A stretch of 40,346 bases of DNA from a virus. The translations under genes and the position numbers were made by a program. Below, piece by piece: positions 2,866 through 30,263 of this stretch. Location of the stretch: the UHGV virus genome UHGV-0260710; one strand, written 5' to 3'. A model generated the notes under the pieces. The model had not been told where the DNA came from, made no database searches, and saw only the letters and a program-made list of their open reading frames with translations. Each line of letters opens with the position of its first letter. Position 1 is the first letter of the stretch.

Positions 2866-3093
2866 TTAAATCATACTCATTAGGACGTATCCATCAGCGA
2901 TGTCACCAACGTCAGCAATGTGGACAACCTTACGCGCTACCTGTTGTCCAGTATACCCGTTGTCCCACTCATTCAGGATAAGCCAATCGCCAACCTTAAA
3001 GTCCCGGTCGTTAAGTCTCATCTCTGCTGTCTTTAGACCTAGCTGTACCGGACCAAAGTGCTGGCGGTGAATCTTCAGGTTGTGACTAGCCAT
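2866..3093 (-). CDS. Small ASCH/DUF3850-like protein inserted between tail tube genes
   Basis: 75-aa ORF; start overlaps gp11 stop (TAATG); pattern HxLKI...F..V..G.K..E.R.NDRDF.VGD.L.L.E.....YTG......V..I....D.....GYV.MS resembles DUF3850 as I remember it. Confidence 0.55.
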   Translation of the reverse strand: MASHNLKIHRQHFGPVQLGLKTAEMRLNDRDFKVGDWLILNEWDNGYTGQQVARKVVHIADVGDIADGYVLMSMI

Positions 3094-3659
3094 TAGTCCC
3101 TCCCGATGTCAGACATCATGTTGTAGCGACCAGTGTCCATCTCATACTCCATAACCTGCTGATAGAGTTCTGCTTCCTGCTCACGAAGGTATAGCTCTGA
3201 CTCTGGGCTACCGAAGAACTTAGCGTTGAACTCACGGCTAGCTTTAGTGACGATGTAGTCCCTGAAGACCACAGGCATCTCGGAGAATGGCTTCATCTCC
3301 ACAAGCTCTACCGTGATAGGGTCGGTGAAAGTGGTTGACTGAGTGGATAGGTCGTACAGGTATCCACCCATGTTGCTGTAGTAGCTGGTGGCCCCAGCAG
3401 TCATTACACGAAGGTATGATGGCAAGAATCGAATCCTATTGTCTTGGACATCAGGTGTCAGTACAGCAGCTTCGTTGATGTTAAAGTTCCAGCCTTTAGC
3501 TTGGACCTGACGATTGACACGATGTAGTATACGTTGAGCGTTAGAGACGTCAGCGTTCCCCTCGTCAAGCTGTAGGACTGCTGGTTCACCGATAGCAGCT
3601 AACATATCGTTGATGGCGTCTAAGTCATCGTTAGCATTCAGTGGAATGTATTGAGCCAT
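3093..3659 (-). CDS. gp11: Tail tubular protein A (gp11)
   Basis: 188 aa; alignable to T7 gp11 (e.g. INDMLAAIGEP.., RGW.FNI.E, FRDYIVTKASREFN); downstream of Tphi. Confidence 0.9.
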   Translation of the reverse strand: MAQYIPLNANDDLDAINDMLAAIGEPAVLQLDEGNADVSNAQRILHRVNRQVQAKGWNFNINEAAVLTPDVQDNRIRFLPSYLRVMTAGATSYYSNMGGYLYDLSTQSTTFTDPITVELVEMKPFSEMPVVFRDYIVTKASREFNAKFFGSPESELYLREQEAELYQQVMEYEMDTGRYNMMSDIGRD

Positions 3660-7603: not shown

Positions 7604-7852
7604 TTAAATAGAAATACCGCCACCAGAGGTGCGAGAGACCTGAAGGCTACGCTTACCGGAACGCTTCACTTTCTTCTCGTCAGATGCGGTTGCTTCAGTA
7701 TCCACATCCTCCACTTGGTCGTTCGGTACTTCCACTGGTGCTGCTGGGGTCTGAGCCTCAACAACCTTAGGCGCATCGTCAGAGCCAAGACCAACGGTCC
7801 CTAACGTACTTTTCACCACTTTCTTGAAAGCCTTACTGATTGATTTACCCAC
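7604..7852 (-). CDS. gp7.3: gp7.3-like small virion protein
   Basis: 82 aa, basic N-terminus, ends SGGGISI; position between gp7 and portal. Confidence 0.65.
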   Translation of the reverse strand: MGKSISKAFKKVVKSTLGTVGLGSDDAPKVVEAQTPAAPVEVPNDQVEDVDTEATASDEKKVKRSGKRSLQVSRTSGGGISI

Positions 7853-10274: not shown

Positions 10275-10570
10275 CGTTCGAACTCCACCCGGAAGTTACC
10301 AAAGCTCGGCTGGTCAGAGTAGTTGCTCAAGTCTTCTTTCAGACCGTCGACAATGCCTTTCTTAAAGACAAGTTCGACTACAGCTTCCAGACCTTCCGTC
10401 ACACCGACCTCTACCATCTTACGCTCAAAACCAGTGGTCTTCTCTCCGTTGAGGACCTTACGGCTCAGCTCGCAGAGAGTCTTCTTGAAGTTCTCCACGT
10501 TTTCAGTTGACAACACAGCACCCAGCGAGAACGAAACTCGCATACGTTTGGTCATAGCCATTAGTGACAC
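10271..10570 (-). CDS. gp5.5: gp5.5-like protein (true start may be the internal MAMTKR Met)
   Basis: 99 aa; N-terminal MAMTKR.RVSF resembles T7 gp5.5. Confidence 0.75.
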   Translation of the reverse strand: MSLMAMTKRMRVSFSLGAVLSTENVENFKKTLCELSRKVLNGEKTTGFERKMVEVGVTEGLEAVVELVFKKGIVDGLKEDLSNYSDQPSFGNFRVEFER

Positions 10571-10842
10571 TCCTTCTTGACAAGTTTGCGCTCGCGGTTC
10601 GTCTTAATAACGTGCTCACGCTTAGGAATACATTGCAGATGCTCAACGTTACAGCACCCACGATTCAAGCACAAATGGTCTATCTCGTAGCCATCTGGTA
10701 TCGGTCCGCACTTCTGCTCCCAGACCCATCGGTGGAACATGAACGCGAACTTAGTTCCCTTTCGGTAGCTTCCCATAGAGTACCGGAAGTACACGTCATG
10801 GTTCCTCTTATGAGAGACGCAGACAATACATCCGGTAGGCAT
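10561..10842 (-). CDS. HNH endonuclease (gene 5.3 position); start taken at MPTGCIVC
   Basis: Cys-rich HNH motif (GCIVC..H....EIDHLCLNRGCCNVEHL); ATG at 10840-10842 lies 31 nt after DNA polymerase stop. Confidence 0.75.
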   Translation of the reverse strand: MPTGCIVCVSHKRNHDVYFRYSMGSYRKGTKFAFMFHRWVWEQKCGPIPDGYEIDHLCLNRGCCNVEHLQCIPKREHVIKTNRERKLVKKECH

Positions 10843-10873
10843 GGTGTGAAACCTCAAGGTCTTAGTGCGTGGG

Positions 10874-13045
10874 TCAATGGCACTCTTTCCATGTTGGTCC
10901 AATCTTACCCTCCGTATCAAGCTCACACTTGAAGTTATAGAATAGTCCAACCTCTCTCATGGCTTCCTGTGCGATTCGAACTACATCCTCGGCAATTTCC
11001 TGAGTACGACACGCGATTTGTAATTCGTCGTGAATCCAAGCCATTAACGCAAAGTCTCCATCCCAGCCGTTGCCATAACCAGCCTCCTCAAGTTTCTTCT
11101 CAGTCAGCACCATCCAGTGCTTACAGACTACCGCACCATCACCTTGAAGTAATGCGTTCAGTGCTGAGTGTGGAGACCGGATGTGGATACGGCGACCATC
11201 AAGTCCACGCAGCCAACGGCGTTTCCACTTGACGATGTTCTCTCCGTCTACCCACTTAGAGTCTGAGATTAACGTATTACTCACAGCTTCCCTGAGGTCC
11301 TTGATGGCTGGTGTACCCTCAATGAATTTCTTCATGAGAGCTGAACCTTCCTTCTTACCACCTCCGACTATCAGTCCAATCTTAGCAGCACCTGCACCAT
11401 ACAGGAACGCATAGATGAACGTCTTAGCGTTGTTACGGAAAGCATCATGTTCATGGCTCGACTTGTCGCGTGGGACGTTAGGTGCTAATCCAGCGTTGAC
11501 TGCGTTTGCCCAGTGGATGTCACCTTCGACCACAGTCTTGGCGTATTCACCACCATCAAACGGAGCAGCTCGGTTCCCCAGACAACGAAGCTCAAGACCT
11601 GAAGCATCCACACCTACTTGAATCCAAGGGTCTGGCTTACCATCCTTCTTGTTCCACGCTGCACCGAAAGCACCACGGCAAGTCTCACCATACGGAGCAC
11701 CATTAGCCGGGACCTGAGCCATGTTTGGTGAGCTATGGGTCGCACGTCCTGTTACTGCACCACATGGGTTGATTGAACCGTGCATACGTCCGTCTGGACC
11801 TACAAGTTTCAACCATGCGTTCTTACCTTCAGCCGCCTGACCGATGCGCTTCTGGACCACCAGATACTCACGGACCAGCTCTACGCAAGCCTGAGCCTCT
11901 GCGTCTGGTAATTTAACGTGTTCTAACGTCTCGTCATCGACTACAGGTTTCCCGGTGTCAGTGAAGTCCACAGGATCCCAGCCACGCTCCATCAGGACTT
12001 TCGCTAAGTGGTCTCCGCTTCCCGGATTAAACTCAACGTAAGTGATTGGAGTGAATGGCGCTCCTTCCATCGTGTCTCGTGAGTCGAACTCGCAAGGCTC
12101 CAGACCTAAGCGTTGAGCTTTGTTCTTCGGCTTCTTGAATACTGACCCGACCTTAGGATACACGACTCGTGGATACTTCGGAAGGTCCTTACCTGTCCGT
12201 GGGTGCTTGAAGAACTCCTTGCCACCCTTCGGTGAATACCAGCTACCGAAAGTCGAACGCAGCTTGTCCAGCAACTCTGCACGTTTGACGGTGAGTTCAC
12301 GATATAAGCCTTCGACCATCTCGGTATTCATCGGATAGCCGTTACGTTCCATCTTCGCACAGGTCCACGCAGCATCATGTTCCAGACGCAACGCATAAAT
12401 CTGTTCGAAAGCGAACTGTTCAGACTGGAAGTAATACTTGTCAGTCAGGAACTTCTTGAACAATGACAGTGTGACCACAACGTCCTGAACGTTATAGTCC
12501 AGCATCTCCTGAGACGGGAACAACCATTCGTCCCCCGCCTTATATTCGATACCTTCGGCCTTGCACTTGGCAACGTAATCGTGTTTGTACTCACCCTTCA
12601 TCTCACCGAGACGATAGCCCCAAGCCTCAAGAGACTGGCGTCCCATCATCTTAGGTGGCAGACGACCAGCTTTCACCGCGCCCATGTCTGAGAACTTAAT
12701 GTTTGGATACATCAAGCGGCCCAGCACCAAGGTATCAATCATCTTGTGTTTCGGGAAGTTAAATCGTTTCCCAAAGTACAAACGCTTCAGCTTGTCTATA
12801 GCCGGGACGTCATAGTTGATACCGTTATGGAAGACCAGCATACCCGTAGGCGTTGCAGCAATTTCTTCCACCTTCTGTACATACTCTTTGAAGCCACCGA
12901 CGATACCGACCATCGGCGCTACCCCATACTTAAGGGTCTCATTCGACTCGGCATTAATCAGGACCCCACAATGGAACTGGGACACGGTGTCAAGGAGACC
13001 GTTGGTCTCGATGTCCGAACCCCAAATATCCTTAAGGTCAAACAT
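10874..13045 (-). CDS. gp5: DNA polymerase (gp5, family A)
   Basis: 723 aa; long collinear matches to T7 gp5 (FHNG..YDVPA, IDTLVL.RL, EAWGYRLGEMKGEYK, YNVQDVVVT, GSW..PKGG, RTGK.LPKYPR, GRATH, DASGLELRC, NAKTFIY.FLYGAG, KGLDGR..H.RSPH.ALN.LLQ, WIHDE.Q..CRT, LDTEGK.GP.W..CH). Confidence 0.95.
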   Translation of the reverse strand: MFDLKDIWGSDIETNGLLDTVSQFHCGVLINAESNETLKYGVAPMVGIVGGFKEYVQKVEEIAATPTGMLVFHNGINYDVPAIDKLKRLYFGKRFNFPKHKMIDTLVLGRLMYPNIKFSDMGAVKAGRLPPKMMGRQSLEAWGYRLGEMKGEYKHDYVAKCKAEGIEYKAGDEWLFPSQEMLDYNVQDVVVTLSLFKKFLTDKYYFQSEQFAFEQIYALRLEHDAAWTCAKMERNGYPMNTEMVEGLYRELTVKRAELLDKLRSTFGSWYSPKGGKEFFKHPRTGKDLPKYPRVVYPKVGSVFKKPKNKAQRLGLEPCEFDSRDTMEGAPFTPITYVEFNPGSGDHLAKVLMERGWDPVDFTDTGKPVVDDETLEHVKLPDAEAQACVELVREYLVVQKRIGQAAEGKNAWLKLVGPDGRMHGSINPCGAVTGRATHSSPNMAQVPANGAPYGETCRGAFGAAWNKKDGKPDPWIQVGVDASGLELRCLGNRAAPFDGGEYAKTVVEGDIHWANAVNAGLAPNVPRDKSSHEHDAFRNNAKTFIYAFLYGAGAAKIGLIVGGGKKEGSALMKKFIEGTPAIKDLREAVSNTLISDSKWVDGENIVKWKRRWLRGLDGRRIHIRSPHSALNALLQGDGAVVCKHWMVLTEKKLEEAGYGNGWDGDFALMAWIHDELQIACRTQEIAEDVVRIAQEAMREVGLFYNFKCELDTEGKIGPTWKECH

Positions 13046-13318: not shown

Positions 13319-15356
<2,038 letters not shown>

Positions 15357-18047: not shown

Positions 18048-18365
18048 CTACTTGGAGTCATAGCACTTACCTTTATGCAGGTCGAACAGCTCCTGATAGA
18101 ATGCTGCTTTGTTCAGGTCCTTCTCCATAGTAGCCAGCTCTGACTTCTTACCAGCCCGGAGGCGATACTTCAGGACGTTACCCATGCAGAACCCACGGAA
18201 CTCGCTGACAGTCATGGACCGAGCGATAATCTCAATGGATTCCACGCCGTCAAAGACCTGATAGTGGGAAGGCTTGATCACACTGTCGTCTATATTAGGC
18301 GGGTTGATACAGTTACAGACTCCAGCTCCGTTCCATATCGTACAGCCGGGAGAATGGTTAGTCAT
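18048..18365 (-). CDS. gp1.7: gp1.7-like protein (corresponds to the C-terminal half of T7 nucleotide kinase gp1.7)
   Basis: 105 aa; KPSHYQVFDGVESIEIIARSMTVSEFRGFCMGNVLKYRLRAGKKSELATMEKDLNKAAFYQELFDLHKGKCY nearly collinear with the T7 gp1.7 C-terminus. Confidence 0.75.
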   Translation of the reverse strand: MTNHSPGCTIWNGAGVCNCINPPNIDDSVIKPSHYQVFDGVESIEIIARSMTVSEFRGFCMGNVLKYRLRAGKKSELATMEKDLNKAAFYQELFDLHKGKCYDSK

Positions 18366-18741: not shown

Positions 18742-19224
18742 TTATAATGAGTCTCTTAAGGCTACCGCCTCGGCTATGGTCTTGGCATATAGGACCACTC
18801 GCTCTCCGTTGACCACCTTCTTGATACAGTAAAGCTCTCGACCTTTCACCTTTGAGATGTGACGTTCTCCGGTAGTGTTGGTGGACATCTGGCCTTTGTT
18901 CTGGTTGTTCTCTGAGTGAGACACCAGTCGCAGGTTGGACATCCTGTTATTAGAAGGGTCCCGGTCAATGTGGTCAATCTCCATGCCGTCTGGTATGGGA
19001 CCATATGTCATCTCCCATATTACCCTATGAACCTGTAGATGCTTGCGGCCCCACGGTGTCCTGACGTTTATCGTCCAATAGCCGGACTTCTTCTTACTGC
19101 CTACCTTTCGTCCAGAGTGGAGGGCCAGCCCGGAGGCCGACCTTTCGTCCACTTTAAATCTTGACTGTAGGATTATCCTCAGTTCCACGCCACTGGTCGA
19201 ACGAGGGATGTCGCAATGAGCCAT
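18742..19224 (-). CDS. HNH homing-endonuclease-like protein (extra relative to T7)
   Basis: 160 aa; [41 protein letters not shown] core; 5' end overlaps the ligase 3' end (an in-frame GTG at 19150-19152 is an alternative start). Confidence 0.8.
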   Translation of the reverse strand: MAHCDIPRSTSGVELRIILQSRFKVDERSASGLALHSGRKVGSKKKSGYWTINVRTPWGRKHLQVHRVIWEMTYGPIPDGMEIDHIDRDPSNNRMSNLRLVSHSENNQNKGQMSTNTTGERHISKVKGRELYCIKKVVNGERVVLYAKTIAEAVALRDSL

Positions 19225-26224: not shown

Positions 26225-26480
26225 TCTGACTGTAGGTGTTGGTGTCTTATGGTTGAGACTGTAGGTTGTTAGACTGTAGGTTGTTAGAACTGTGGTTGTG
26301 ACTTATGGTTAGTGAGACTGTAGGCTGTAGGCTGATGGTTGTGACTTAGGGTCTGATACAGATAGAGACTCAGAGGCAGACCCATAGTCCCAACCTATCG
26401 TCCTTCCCTAAGCCATAGCCACAACCTATCGTTGACCTAACGTCTTGACCATCGGTCCAACCTTATGATAGACTGGGGGT
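26225..26480. repeat. Arrays of short degenerate repeats characteristic of T7-group genome ends
   Basis: 26225-26355 reiterates (G)ACTGTAGG(T/C)TGT / CTTATGG / CTTAGGG units (CCTACAG-type on minus strand); 26380-26475 carries CCATAG / CCTATCG / CCTAAG-type units in the opposite orientation; non-coding. Confidence 0.6.
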
Positions 26481-27117
26481 AGGGCCTTTGGTCTGGACTG
26501 AAAGAGGGCCTATGGGGAGACTTGAGGTTCTTGAACTGTGAGATGTGGTCTCAAACTTTTGGTCCAAAACTCATCGAAGACTGTAGGACACAGCCACTGT
26601 AGGTCAAGGACCGTAGGTCAGGCGACACTAGGATAGACCAATAAGTAGGATGACCCTAAGTGAGCTTCTCTTAAGGTGTTACCTAAAGTCCTTGACTACA
26701 GTAGCTAAGGTCAGTAGAGTAGCGTCAGCTATGAACTGACCTTAGGTCTTCCGCTCATGAATCGTTACCATGATTGCATTAATTGCACTGAGAGACCAGA
26801 GAGCATACGAGAGTCTCGACCCACCCGACCCACTGACTTCCAGCAGTAACGCCAGAAGCAAGTAGAACAGCAGCAAGAAACCTGTATGTAGCTCGATTGG
26901 TCGCCAGAGCTTTAAGTACAGCTTTGGTCTTTGCCATATGCTACATACCTCCTGTATCTATGGTCGGTGACTATCTGTATTGGAGGGATTATGATTAATA
27001 TCACCCTCCTTCCATCGGTGCAAGCCTTAGGTAAGAACTCGGAGTCTGCCTCCTAAGGTCTTGCATAAAGTCTGCATATGTATATTCACTACAGTAATAC
27101 TATAAGTAACCGGGGGT

Positions 27118-27140: not shown

Positions 27141-27263
27141 CCAAACTCCTTGTAAAACAGTAGGTTAGACTGGTAGTCACGCATGGTAACTACCTGAGTT
27201 TTTATTCACATATAGCGACATAGTATTCACCATGAAGCTCCCTTCCCTTGGTATTCCTCCAGT

Positions 27264-27612
27264 CTATTGCATCCTGTAAGCTATCGGTAGCATATCTATA
27301 GGTAACACCGTCCTTCGTCTGGCTAGTCTTCCACTTACCTGAACACCTCTTAATACTGTGGGCCAGCACCTCATGTCCTGACTCTTTCCTCTTCTTACAG
27401 CATTAACCGAGTTCTGAGACTTTGTGGCAAGCCGTAGGTTTTCTCTACGATTGTTCAACTTGTTCCTGTCAATATGGTCAACAACCATTCCATCAGGCAC
27501 TGGTCCGTAGAACATCTCGTACACTAAGATGTGCACAAAATGCTCATGGACCTTGTAGTATTTACCGACCAGACCCGACTATACAGCCGGGAACGCTATC
27601 GTCGTACTTCAT
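27264..27612 (-). pseudogene. HNH endonuclease paralog split by a frameshift (remnant or requires recoding)
   Basis: GTG-initiated 90-aa ORF (27264-27536) holds the HNH core HILVYEMFYGPVPDGMVVDHIDRNKLNNRRENLRLA; 15 codons in another frame upstream (MKYDDSVPGCIVGSGR, with TAGGAGGATAA-ATG RBS) plus the open HNH frame (..GKYYKV..) align to the N-termini of the intact paralogs (..[13 protein letters not shown]..); coordinates +/-1. Confidence 0.45.
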
Positions 27613-27623
27613 TTATCCTCCTA

Positions 27624-29390
27624 TTAGTGGAACGTAATGTATGACCCTAGTCCCAGCTCGTCGTCCGTATCGTGAGTTACCCGGACCCCATTGTCCCAGA
27701 ACTCAGTGTGGATGGACTCGAAGCCTTTCCGTGGGTTCTCCATCTGTTCCTCCAGCCACTCCTCAGTGACTTCACGTTCGCCCTTGTTGGCATCCTTAGC
27801 CATAGACTCAACGAAGAACTGTACACCGATAGCCAGCGCATCAAGTCGGTCATCGTGTGCCAAGGCGCCACGTTCACGAGAGATACGTGTCATCTGGTAG
27901 AAGAGAGAGTAGATAGGGTTACGAACACCATCCTTATCAGAGGCCGACTGGTAGTCTTGGACGATAGCAGCAGCGTTAACGATAAGTCGGTGAGACCCCA
28001 TGATAGGCTCCAGAACGTCACAGATGCGTAGTTCTTTCTGCCCCTTACTCTTCACTTCAGTTACAGCCGCAGGATGTATACGGGCCGCTACAGGCTTGAA
28101 TAGCTCAAGGTACATACCATCACCGAAGTTACCCTCAATGACGTATTCGTTGACCTTCCACTTACGACCAATCTTAGCCAGTGCTTCAAGCGTAGAGTCT
28201 TCATAACCACCACGCATGCCGCCAACTTCCATAGCGAAGATGTAGCCGTTGAGCTGGTACAGTACCGCATATCCAGTTTCATCCTTACCACGACCACTAG
28301 GGTCAATGACCAGAATCTTCTGGGTGTACGAACTGAAGGCAGAACCTACAGTCTGATACGTGTGGTATGAGTCTCCCATGAGTCCAACGTTAGGAACGTC
28401 CTCACGCTTGTTCTGAGGGTTTGGCAGCCATTGGTAGACCATTGGGCTGGACGCTGGGTCCAAGTCTGCTACGATAAGGTCACGGAGCTTCAGAGGGTAC
28501 TTCTCGGCATCACTCAGGTTCGGGTTAAGCATGAACTGTAGAGCGAAGCCAGCTTTACCGTAGGACAGCTCACGTTCCTTCAGGTCAGTATCGTCGAATC
28601 GAACTTCATCGGTCGGACGCCAGTAGTAGGCCTCAGGGTCCTCTTCAAGCTCTGCCTGAAGCATCGGTGCCAGACGGTAGCCGTAAGACTGCCAGTCCTT
28701 CTTATCACGTGGATAACGAGCAGGCCAGATAGTAGTGGTGTACCCACGGCCTTCCAGCTCACGATACAAGGTCATCTCGTTCTGAGGAGTACCCAGATAG
28801 ATGATTGTACCTCCCGGCTTCAGGATAGCGTCGAACTCTTTCACAAGCTCTGATAGACGGTCTCGTGCAGCCTGAGTCGCTGAGTTGTTCGGAACCTCCA
28901 CGTCATCGGCAATCAGGATGTCAGCACGACTACCAGTCAACTGACCAGTGATACCAACGGACTTAACCGAAGGTGAGTGGTCTGGCTTGGCGGGTCCAAC
29001 GTCAAAACTGATAACCGCATCTCGCTGTCCCTGCTTAGGTTTGAGTTCCTGAAGCTGAGGCATGAGGTCGATGATTCGCTTGATGAAGATGGAGTTAGCA
29101 TCGGCTCGTTCCTTTGATGCCGACACAATCATGAACTTCAAGTCTGGGTTGTTCCATAGCTTCCAGACCACAAAGCCACAGGTCAGAAACGACTTGCCAA
29201 TACCACGGAAAGCCTGAAGGATGAAGCGGCGATTATCCCCAGCAGCCAGCTTCTTACACATATCTATCTGGCAGCGGGTTGGAACCGGAAGGCTTAGCGC
29301 TTTCCAGAGAACGAAGATGAAGAACACGAAGTCGTCCTGCATCCTTTGGGTCATTTCTGCCTGTCTTTCAGCTGGTGTTTTCTTAGACAT
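27624..29390 (-). CDS. gp19: Terminase large subunit (gp19)
   Basis: 588 aa; near-collinear with T7 gp19 ([124 protein letters not shown]). Confidence 0.95.
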
Positions 29391-29823
29391 AGAGTCCCTC
29401 CAACATTAGGTCCCGGACAGCGATAGCCTCCTCTAAAGTGGGACGTGTTGTGCGCATACGGACTCCCTTACGCATAACCTCGATGGCGTAGCCGTTCTGG
29501 TGGAACGATACGTTCTTAACTCCAGTCTTTGAGTCAGAATGACCTGAGGTGTTGCAGGAGTTCGCGCTTGAAGTAACTAGCCGGAGGTTGTCCAGCCTGT
29601 TGTTAGTTCGGCAACGGTCGATGTGATCAATCTCCATGCCTTCTGGTATGGGACCGTTGGTTAGCTCCCAGATTACCCGATGAGCCAGCAGGAGTCCATG
29701 ACGTCTAGTTCCTACCTGATAATACCCGTGGTTTCCAACACACCCAACGTCCTTACCTGAACGAAGTGACTTCAGGCCAGACTTACTGGACTCATCATAA
29801 GTATACGAATCACTGAGCATCAT
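29383..29823 (-). CDS. HNH homing-endonuclease-like protein overlapping the terminase start
   Basis: 146 aa; [41 protein letters not shown]; 3' end overlaps TerL ATG by 8 nt; absent at this position in T7. Confidence 0.85.
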
Positions 29824-30263
29824 TTCTCCTTATCTTGCTGCAAGGCTCTCACAGTATCCTGAAGGGCCTTAATCCACTTGTCCCCTTTCAGTCCGATGGA
29901 GATAAGACGTTTAGCATCTCGTTCGTCAAGTTCGGCGTAACCATCAATGATGCATCGACCGTCACTTTGCGTGGTTCCACTCGTTGGTTTGACTCGGATG
30001 CGCAACCGCTTATTGTCAGACTGAAGGTCAGCAATAATCCTATCAGTACTGCCTTCCAGCGAGGACATTTCGTCCTGAAACCGTTTGGACACTTTGTTGA
30101 CTTCAGCTTGGACAGCAAGCCTTGTATCCTCCGATGCCTTAAGATTCGAGGTGTATTCTGCATTGACCTTAGCCTCCCACTTATTGTTAGCGGTGTGGTA
30201 GCCCCCAGCAAACATCACTGCTGCAAGTAACCACGGAGCCGCTCTCTTTAAAAATTCGAGCAT
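29820..30263 (-). CDS. gp18.5: Inner-membrane spanin (Rz-like, gp18.5)
   Basis: 147 aa; N-terminal TM (WLLAAVMFAGGY); collinear with T7 gp18.5 (MLEFL....PW.LA, GSTDRII.DL.SDNKRLR.RVK.T, DERDAKR, W..ALQDT.R.LQ). Confidence 0.85.
   Translation of the reverse strand: MLEFLKRAAPWLLAAVMFAGGYHTANNKWEAKVNAEYTSNLKASEDTRLAVQAEVNKVSKRFQDEMSSLEGSTDRIIADLQSDNKRLRIRVKPTSGTTQSDGRCIIDGYAELDERDAKRLISIGLKGDKWIKALQDTVRALQQDKEK
29888..30163 (-). CDS. gp18.7: Outer-membrane lipoprotein spanin (Rz1-like, gp18.7) embedded in gp18.5 in another frame
   Basis: Signal peptide RWKAVLIGLLLTFSLTISGC with lipobox, then ASES...SLMV.PNLT.EMLNV as in T7 gp18.7; start assigned to the internal Met (ORF open from 30211). Confidence 0.7.
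   Translation of the reverse strand: MQNTPRILRHRRIQGLLSKLKSTKCPNGFRTKCPRWKAVLIGLLLTFSLTISGCASESNQRVEPRKVTVDASLMVTPNLTNEMLNVLSPSD

Follow-up and report, generated by a model that had tools for sequence, protein, structure and literature searches.

An HNH_3 gene, probably of the free-standing homing type, between the Rz and large terminase genes of a Kayfunavirus-like phage genome

The window analyzed here, the whole 40,346-nt virus genome UHGV-0260710, uses its minus strand as the coding strand for every gene. The initial annotation had called it a T7-type phage, which holds: the closest records belong to Kayfunavirus, in the Studiervirinae, and the region under study shares 87-95% identity with many Escherichia, Citrobacter, Salmonella, and Enterobacter phages of that genus. 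The gene for the large terminase subunit gp19 (terL; 27624-29390, minus strand) encodes a T7-type protein of 588 amino acids. It is identified by its ORF and its match to the Pfam family Terminase-T7_RNaseH-like (PF22530; E = 6.3e-38), has an additional weak match to Terminase_6N and no Pfam match to Terminase_1, and is 94-95% identical to the terL genes of Kayfunavirus. Upstream lies the gene for the Rz-like i-spanin gp18.5 (29820-30263, minus strand; Pfam Phage_lysis). Between the two is the ORF of 146 amino acids, counted from its first ATG, that had initially been reported as an HNH gene (29383-29823, minus strand) and that we treat as allele A of a putative free-standing HNH homing endonuclease gene. 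A second, decayed HNH_3 gene (27202-27612, minus strand), recognized by its homology to '3.8B' of phage CR44b, follows 11 nt downstream of the terL stop codon. Compared with the intact 138-amino-acid genes of CR44b and KE05, it has lost 5 nt at ~27572 and 1 nt at ~27359, and its surviving ORF of 90 amino acids (27264-27536) matches HNH_3 with an E value of 4e-22. The two HNH genes flanking terL occur independently of each other: both are intact in CR44b, only the upstream gene is present in vB_EcoP-22664UKE3-2, only the downstream gene in KE05, and neither in K1F, Vec13, or SH3.

The upstream HNH ORF does end 8 nt inside the terL reading frame, as had been noticed at the outset. The shared nucleotides (29383-29390, minus strand) read ATGTCTAA on the coding strand and contain both the terL start codon (ATG, 29390-29388) and the HNH stop codon (TAA, 29385-29383), the ATG lying 5 nt upstream of the TAA. 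A GGAGGG Shine-Dalgarno sequence for terL (29396-29401, minus strand) is embedded in the final HNH codons, 5 nt upstream of the ATG. At the opposite end of the gene, the upstream junction (29818-29831, minus strand) is made up of an AAGGAG Shine-Dalgarno sequence in the 3' end of Rz, the Rz TGA, and the HNH ATGATG, and the HNH start overlaps the stop codon of Rz in the sequence AAATGATG. The second of these ATGs (29820-29818) is 5 nt past AAGGAG, and a product of 145 amino acids is annotated from it in relatives; translation of the HNH protein probably starts at this second ATG at 29820, giving 145 amino acids.

All seven intact junction copies in the fetched GenBank relatives, of which five belong to allele A and two to allele B, have the ATGTCTAA overlap; 22664UKE3-2, Zappy, Eclo04, PRF-SP2, CR44b, and yong1 carry it unchanged in their intact junction copies. 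At least two other pairs of adjacent ORFs in the genome also overlap by 8 nt (7845-7852 and 18358-18365), and the HNH/terL overlap is therefore a case of ordinary phage gene packing. In other words, the overlap is real but ordinary, and dozens of records from Kayfunavirus already label the gene 'HNH homing endonuclease'. The arrangement itself was described earlier in a paper on Hafnia phage Ca (record yong1), in which a homing endonuclease gene (HEG) lies between a lysis gene and terL, with the terL ATG upstream of the HEG TAA (PMC8861465). The position and the overlap seen in the window recur in yong1 (MK610268), CR44b ('3.8A', allele B), and 22664UKE3-2 (allele A), and these carriers share with the window the last ~100 nt of HNH and the linked terL 5' end. 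At the nucleotide level, the window gene is 92-94% identical to the allele A genes and about 72% identical to allele B over the first two thirds. The window differs in joining allele A to a K1F-type Rz, a decayed '3.8B' downstream, and a private substitution, E87A.

The relatives that lack the gene show what the insert has displaced. The junction reads AAGGAGGTGACGCATTGAGT in K1F, Vec13, SH3, and KE05, and K1F-type HNH-less phages read ...GATAAGGAGGTGACGCATTGAGTAAAGAT..., the terL start in both cases being a TTG that overlaps the Rz TGA. In IME177, also without HNH, terL starts with a GTG and shares 11 nt with Rz, its start lying precisely at the point where allele B begins in CR44b. HNH carriers read ...GATAAGGAGAAATGATGCTC...[HNH]...TTGGAGGGACTCTATGTCTAAGAAAACACC..., so that the Rz-coupled start position used by terL in the HNH-less relatives is occupied in carriers by the HNH ORF. 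The final five HNH codons (..L-E-G-L-Y-V) hold a new GGAGGG Shine-Dalgarno sequence and ATG for terL, the arrangement GGAGGG-N5-ATG is present in all HNH carriers, and a distant homologue, L020, keeps a terL Shine-Dalgarno sequence inside the HNH end (GGAGGTTTATATG). The insert thus brings replacement start signals for the essential gene that it displaces, which accounts for the overlap with no need of a shared function.

The same 3' piece is seen in phages that have lost most of the gene. Ro45lw and Penshu1, which were isolated independently, carry internal HNH deletions that leave about 20-27 nt of the allele B 5' end and 19-50 nt of the 3' end, and the 3' remnants of both keep the terL Shine-Dalgarno sequence. 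A pair of GGACC repeats, 386 bp apart (GGACC..GGACC), explains the deletion in Penshu1. Ro45lw, a characterized lytic phage, is reported to form plaques and grow; its burst is 55, and a terminal repeat is listed for it (PMC9866566). The HEG of Hafnia phage Ca underwent a 397-bp deletion that arose spontaneously; this variant accounted for >98% of the genomes in small plaques and the intact genome for >98% of those in large plaques, and the authors speculated on a Kala-type role or on expression effects (PMC8861465). When the yong1 record was searched for short direct repeats 397 bp apart that could account for this deletion, only a 4-nt match was found. Because the Ca deletion is enriched in small plaques, a fitness effect of the cassette is possible (PMC8861465).

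These data allow a reading in which the cassette, regardless of whether its nuclease still homes, acts in cis on terL expression, through an ATG placed behind a strong GGAGGG Shine-Dalgarno sequence coupled to HNH translation, and is kept for the dosage of terL. All carriers have GGAGGG-N5-ATG, compared with weak starts in K-type (TTG) and IME177 (GTG) genomes; a homologue of 63% identity also has the Shine-Dalgarno sequence and the ATG within its HNH C-terminus; Ro45lw and Penshu1 have retained exactly this part; and the Ca deletion variant makes small plaques, for which expression effects were proposed by its authors. However, purifying selection on the coding sequence is strong, which would be needless for a purely cis role, and the cassette is absent from many relatives. 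We consider a cis effect on terL translation to be the most credible rival of, or addition to, the homing reading, but an improbable one.

The protein itself points to a homing nuclease family. The ORF matches Pfam HNH_3 (PF13392; E = 9.5e-21) and PHROG 99, 'HNH endonuclease' (E = 7e-46), and I-HmuI of Bacillus phage SPO1 (1U3E) is both its only significant sequence match in the PDB (E = 0.002) and the only significant fold match of its AlphaFold model (AF2, pLDDT 88; Foldseek E = 4e-5, probability 1.0). The residues D66, H67, N75, N79, and N91 do not vary among 34 homologues. An HNH core is thus indicated by the PF13392 match, by the conserved His and Asn residues, and by the top rank of I-HmuI in both sequence and fold. 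The window protein and I-HmuI share this core (DH..N..N) and an N-terminal beta-hairpin region, and both are phage-borne and encoded beside or inside an essential gene. I-HmuI is a nicking enzyme of a group I intron with a helix-turn-helix C-terminus, whereas the window gene is free-standing and its product has a putatively AP2-like C-terminus; the identity between the two is ~23%. In the model, residues 105-142 form a beta-beta-beta-alpha C-terminal module. Ten of the 34 homologues match AP2 and four match NUMOD4, the window protein itself falling below the AP2 threshold; AP2 and NUMOD4 are modules typical of homing endonucleases. This suggests, at the level of a predicted structure, that the C-terminal module is AP2-like and putatively DNA-binding.

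The protein is also maintained by selection: purifying selection on allele A is strong, with a dN/dS of 0.04-0.12 for diverged pairs. The window copy carries the private E87A (SSANSCN), where the five other allele-A copies read SSENSCN. Since this substitution, seen only in the window, lies in the HNH core beside a conserved Asn, since the neighboring HNH gene has already been frameshifted, and since homing genes tend to decay after they have become fixed, the window copy might be taken for an inactive relic that is kept because its deletion would harm the terL start signals. We regard this as very unlikely: the five invariant residues are all present in the window copy, position 87 is variable across the family and is Ile in I-HmuI, the lineage is under the selection just described, and Ro45lw and Penshu1 show that deletions sparing the terL start signals are possible.

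The distribution of the gene is sporadic. HNH DNA of at least 90% identity (allele A) is found in 42 phage records and allele B (CR44b '3.8A', Hafnia yong1/Ca) in roughly 15-20 more, so that carriers number roughly 60 among about 200 close relatives. As the flanks are found at 80% identity or more in 207 records, about 70% of the close relatives lack the gene. Many of these records, among them SH3, LM33P1, ST38, Vec13, and LS3, match a junction from which HNH was deleted in silico as one unbroken piece, and Rz is joined directly to terL in K1F, SH3, Vec13, KE05, and NS1. Presence is therefore scattered, with precise empty sites, among otherwise near-identical genomes.

One of these phages, NS1, has an empty Rz/terL junction, yet carries a 97%-identical HNH copy between gene 17 and the holin gene 17.5. 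This ectopic copy has brought along the first 46 nt of a C-type terL (the CR44b type, as defined below) and sits between ~90-nt imperfect direct repeats of the intergenic sequence at that site. Its TAA has changed to CAA, and with the stop codon lost the ORF extends to 150 amino acids. Across about +6 to +35, the terL 5' end of NS1 itself departs from that of the other empty junctions, as would be expected if the homing target lay there.

The insert also coincides with a switch between haplotypes. Two haplotypes, the K1F type (K) and the CR44b type (C), were told apart by informative-site analysis and alignments. They diverge by about 3-4% over most of the region, but differ at about 42% of the sites in the 3'-terminal 200 nt of Rz, at 29 of the first 50 positions of terL, and at about 21% of the next 200 nt. 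In the window, the 3' ~200 nt of Rz are of the K type and the first ~250 nt of terL (29141-29390, minus strand) are of the C type. The window, 22664UKE3-2, and Zappy all combine a K-type Rz with a C-type terL, the change of type falling precisely where HNH lies. The Rz of CR44b and pO91 is of the C type, as is, by alignment, that of PRF-SP2, which carries allele A; allele A is thus found with both Rz types. In KE05 and NS1, about 55 nt of K-type or third-variant terL sequence precede the C type. The C-type terL 5' end accompanies every intact junction HNH that was inspected (8/8), and the first 55 nt of the C haplotype (29336-29390) match 67 phage records. We considered whether the insertion had itself created the C-type terL 5' end and rejected this, as IME177 has the C type with neither HNH nor a remnant of it; a better reading is that the haplotype is an allele of the lineage and moves together with the gene.

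Both movement and a position at a boundary of recombination are thus indicated, by the NS1 copy, the K-to-C switch, and the occurrence of allele A with both Rz types. Nuclease genes at the boundaries of genetic exchange are a described pattern (PMC10448857), and HNH in the window lies at one such recombination boundary. Free-standing homing endonucleases of this kind, namely the seg/mob genes of T4 and the HEGs of ICP1 (Barth et al. 2023, PMC10448857), resemble the window gene in lying beside an essential gene, in their sporadic presence, and in the accompanying haplotype switch. They differ in being mostly of the GIY-YIG, T5orf172, or other HNH types, and cleavage has been demonstrated for several of them, whereas the window gene is known by its sequence.

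The initial annotation had asked whether the HNH nuclease takes part in the processing of genome ends or is simply a homing element at a harmless location. Our results favor the second possibility and speak against the first. The window is a circularly permuted assembly in which one direct terminal repeat of ~181 bp is collapsed (~26363-26543), with T7-like repeat ends that read TCTCACAGT... on the left and ...GAGTCTC on the right. The terminal repeats and the determined end of CR44b have been published (PMC4038870). K1F, the type species, has no HNH here and no other annotated nuclease gene near terL, but its right end is 96% identical to that of the window, and its end points coincide with those of the window and CR44b. 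Identical termini in relatives lacking the gene had been named in advance as a result that would speak against a part in end processing, and this is essentially what is found.

A terminase accessory nuclease of the HK97 gp74 kind, aiding gp19 in cutting concatemers at the terminal repeat, is suggested by several features of the locus: the gene adjoins terL and is apparently translationally coupled to it, a distant T7-like contig preserves its position, the HNH protein is under purifying selection, plaque size in Ca correlates with the presence of the gene (PMC8861465), and there is a precedent in the terminase-assisting HNH protein of Kala et al. (2014), which, as quoted in PMC8861465, requires a partner of the Terminase_1 family. 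HK97 gp74, the prototype of HNH proteins that assist terminases, does share with the window protein a nuclease fold of the His-Me finger type and a place adjoining the terminase genes. However, gp74 belongs to PF01844 and the window protein to PF13392, and no similarity between them was detected (BLASTP E = 0.18; hhalign probability 2.5%). The cos-associated HNH enzymes have a [CxxC]2 zinc site (Xu et al. 2013, PMC3592412), which is absent from the window protein; its sequence contains three isolated Cys and no CxxC pair. According to the quoted account, the partner of the gp74 type is a Terminase_1 enzyme acting on cos ends, whereas the window terL is of the T7 type and the genome ends are direct terminal repeats. 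A packaging requirement of the gp74 type implies presence in all close relatives, but the gene is missing from about 70% of the relatives with flanks of at least 80% identity. Adjacency to the terminase is shared with gp74, but the NS1 copy lies away from terL. Ro45lw is viable despite its internal deletion, and Penshu1 has a similar one. Moreover, T7 packaging needs only gp18 and gp19. The evidence argues against HNH being part of the packaging machinery and makes a gp74-like role unlikely; we would give an accessory function in concatemer cutting very little credence.

The Rz/terL junction is occupied by other genes as well. At the same position, there is a different HNH_3/AP2 gene in pO91, an Endonuclease_7 (Endonuclease VII-family) gene in Serratia phage 2050H2, and a 256-amino-acid ORF without a Pfam match in Yersinia phage PYps49T. 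These sequences mark the junction as a hotspot. The family also places itself elsewhere in a similar manner: a 45%-identical paralogue in another T7-like contig has an 11-nt overlap with the start of the DNA ligase gene, and overlap with the start of the next gene is therefore a habit of the family, not specific to the terminase. Within the clade of at least 60% amino acid identity, every GenBank locus inspected except NS1 is at the terL start. The homologue of 63% identity in a distant T7-like metagenomic contig is there too, with an 8-nt overlap (ATGAATAA) and an internal GGAGG. This distant terL-start homologue and the purifying selection fit either a site-specific homing lineage or a functional tie to terL.

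Taken as a whole, the gene is in our judgment very probably a free-standing homing endonuclease gene with an HNH_3 core related to I-HmuI. The internal deletions and the frameshifted HNH gene next to terL fit the decay phase in the cycle of such genes. The word homing is used here on the strength of distribution and context only; a demonstration of cleavage or homing for this gene or its close homologues was not found in the published literature. If the homing reading is right, the gene would have lodged exactly at the junction of spanin gene 18.5 and gene 19 in a subset of Kayfunavirus. In a mixed infection, the enzyme may nick or cut the empty Rz/terL junction of a related phage, and recombinational repair would then copy the gene, together with the adjoining terL 5' segment, into the recipient. 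Carriers would be immune, since either the insertion or the recoding of the first ~50 nt of terL would remove the site. Through its overlaps with Rz and terL, the insert would itself be translated and would spare terL expression by way of translational coupling, and the HNH protein would have no required part in T7-type concatemer cutting, for which gp18 and gp19 would suffice in the HNH-less relatives.

Some observations are points against the homing reading: the terL-start position of the clade, the purifying selection, the Ca plaques, the E87A change of the window copy, and the linkage with the C type in eight of eight cases, which could be a sign of co-adaptation.

The gene may also be something beyond a parasite, its protein aiding the function of the C-type terL, or obligatory translational coupling improving terL dosage. 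We think this improbable; if true, it would explain the C-type linkage, the distant terL-start position, the purifying selection, and the small plaques of Ca.

Under the homing reading, which we prefer, the locus would be a clean example of how a selfish nuclease gene enters the start of an essential gene harmlessly, taking the old signals and supplying new ones, and of how homing-type genes can serve as markers of recombination boundaries. For annotators, adjacency to a terminase gene is, on its own, no ground for assigning a packaging role, and phage engineers who delete HNH should retain its last ~20 nt.

Base composition was considered as a mark of a foreign insert and rejected, the GC content being 51.3% for HNH and 50.1% for the genome. 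The window holds four further HNH_3 regions, namely, the decayed gene downstream of terL and the ORFs at 18742-19224, 14991-15356, and 10561-10950.

The Rz and large terminase (terL) genes meet in a very deep divergence island of about 450 nt (window 29141-30020), which is centred on the Rz/terL junction and takes in about 200 nt of the 3' end of Rz and about 250 nt of the 5' end of terL. Two alleles, the K1F type and the CR44b type, are found here, and they differ at up to 58% of sites; the surrounding genomes are about 96-97% identical. Co-evolution of Rz with Rz1 may be an additional source of the divergence on the Rz side.

Different genes occupy this junction in other phages. In pO91, a third HNH_3/AP2 allele (locus L011, 1867-2253) overlaps terL by 29 nt. 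The junction of Serratia phage 2050H2 holds an Endonuclease VII-family gene (L013, 1322-1747), and that of Yersinia phage PYps49T holds a 256-aa ORF (L012, 1405-2175), for which a Pfam search returned no match. Citrobacter phage NS1 has an ectopic copy of the HNH gene, together with 46 nt of terL, in the interval that separates gene 17 from the holin gene (L005, 3480-4150); bordering it are direct repeats of this intergenic sequence, imperfect and about 90 nt long. The native terL 5' end of NS1 is a third haplotype, with a tandem CGTCAGTA duplication.

In the window's main HNH gene, codon 87 (29563-29565) gives SSANSCN, versus SSENSCN in all five of the other copies inspected of the same allele (allele A). 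This E87A change is private to the window and adjoins a conserved Asn of the HNH core. A second HNH_3 gene (27202-27612, minus strand) lies 11 nt past the terL stop codon, with terL on one side and the position of CR44b's annotated promoter on the other. Its homologues are CR44b "3.8B" and the KE05 HNH gene (95-97% nucleotide identity), and it is disabled by two deletions, one of 5 nt (at about 27572) and one of 1 nt in a C run (at about 27359). Three further HNH_3 ORFs, all intact and on the minus strand, encode 160 aa (18742-19224), 121 aa (14991-15356), and 129 aa (10561-10950), and therefore this genome carries five copies of the nuclease family. All three are found close to genes for ligase, primase/helicase, and DNA polymerase, at roughly the positions that genes 3.8 and 5.3 have in T7. 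On another T7-like contig (L022), the DNA ligase gene is preceded by an HNH_3 paralogue 45% identical to the main HNH (2940-3440), and the two genes share 11 nt; immediately upstream is a sequence resembling a T7 promoter, TAATACGACTCAGTATAGGGA.

The window assembly is circularly permuted, and the direct terminal repeat (about 181 bp) is present as one collapsed copy at about 26363-26543. Its ends (TCTCACAGT... and ...GAGTCTC) agree with those of CR44b and K1F.

Some database records deserve comment. The deposited Hafnia phage record MK610268 (yong1; locus L010) has an extra T at about 2830-2850 (CTCCGTTTAGG versus CTCCGTTAGG in CR44b), which shifts the HNH reading frame, and the annotation is therefore limited to a 45-aa fragment; the HNH of this phage (Hafnia phage Ca) was published as a 143-aa protein (PMC8861465). 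"Staphylococcus phage MBBL139" (OR786095) and "Enterococcus phage EFA-1" (MT350292) contain Kayfunavirus sequence about 92% identical to the window's HNH/terL region, and look like wrong host labels or contaminated isolates.
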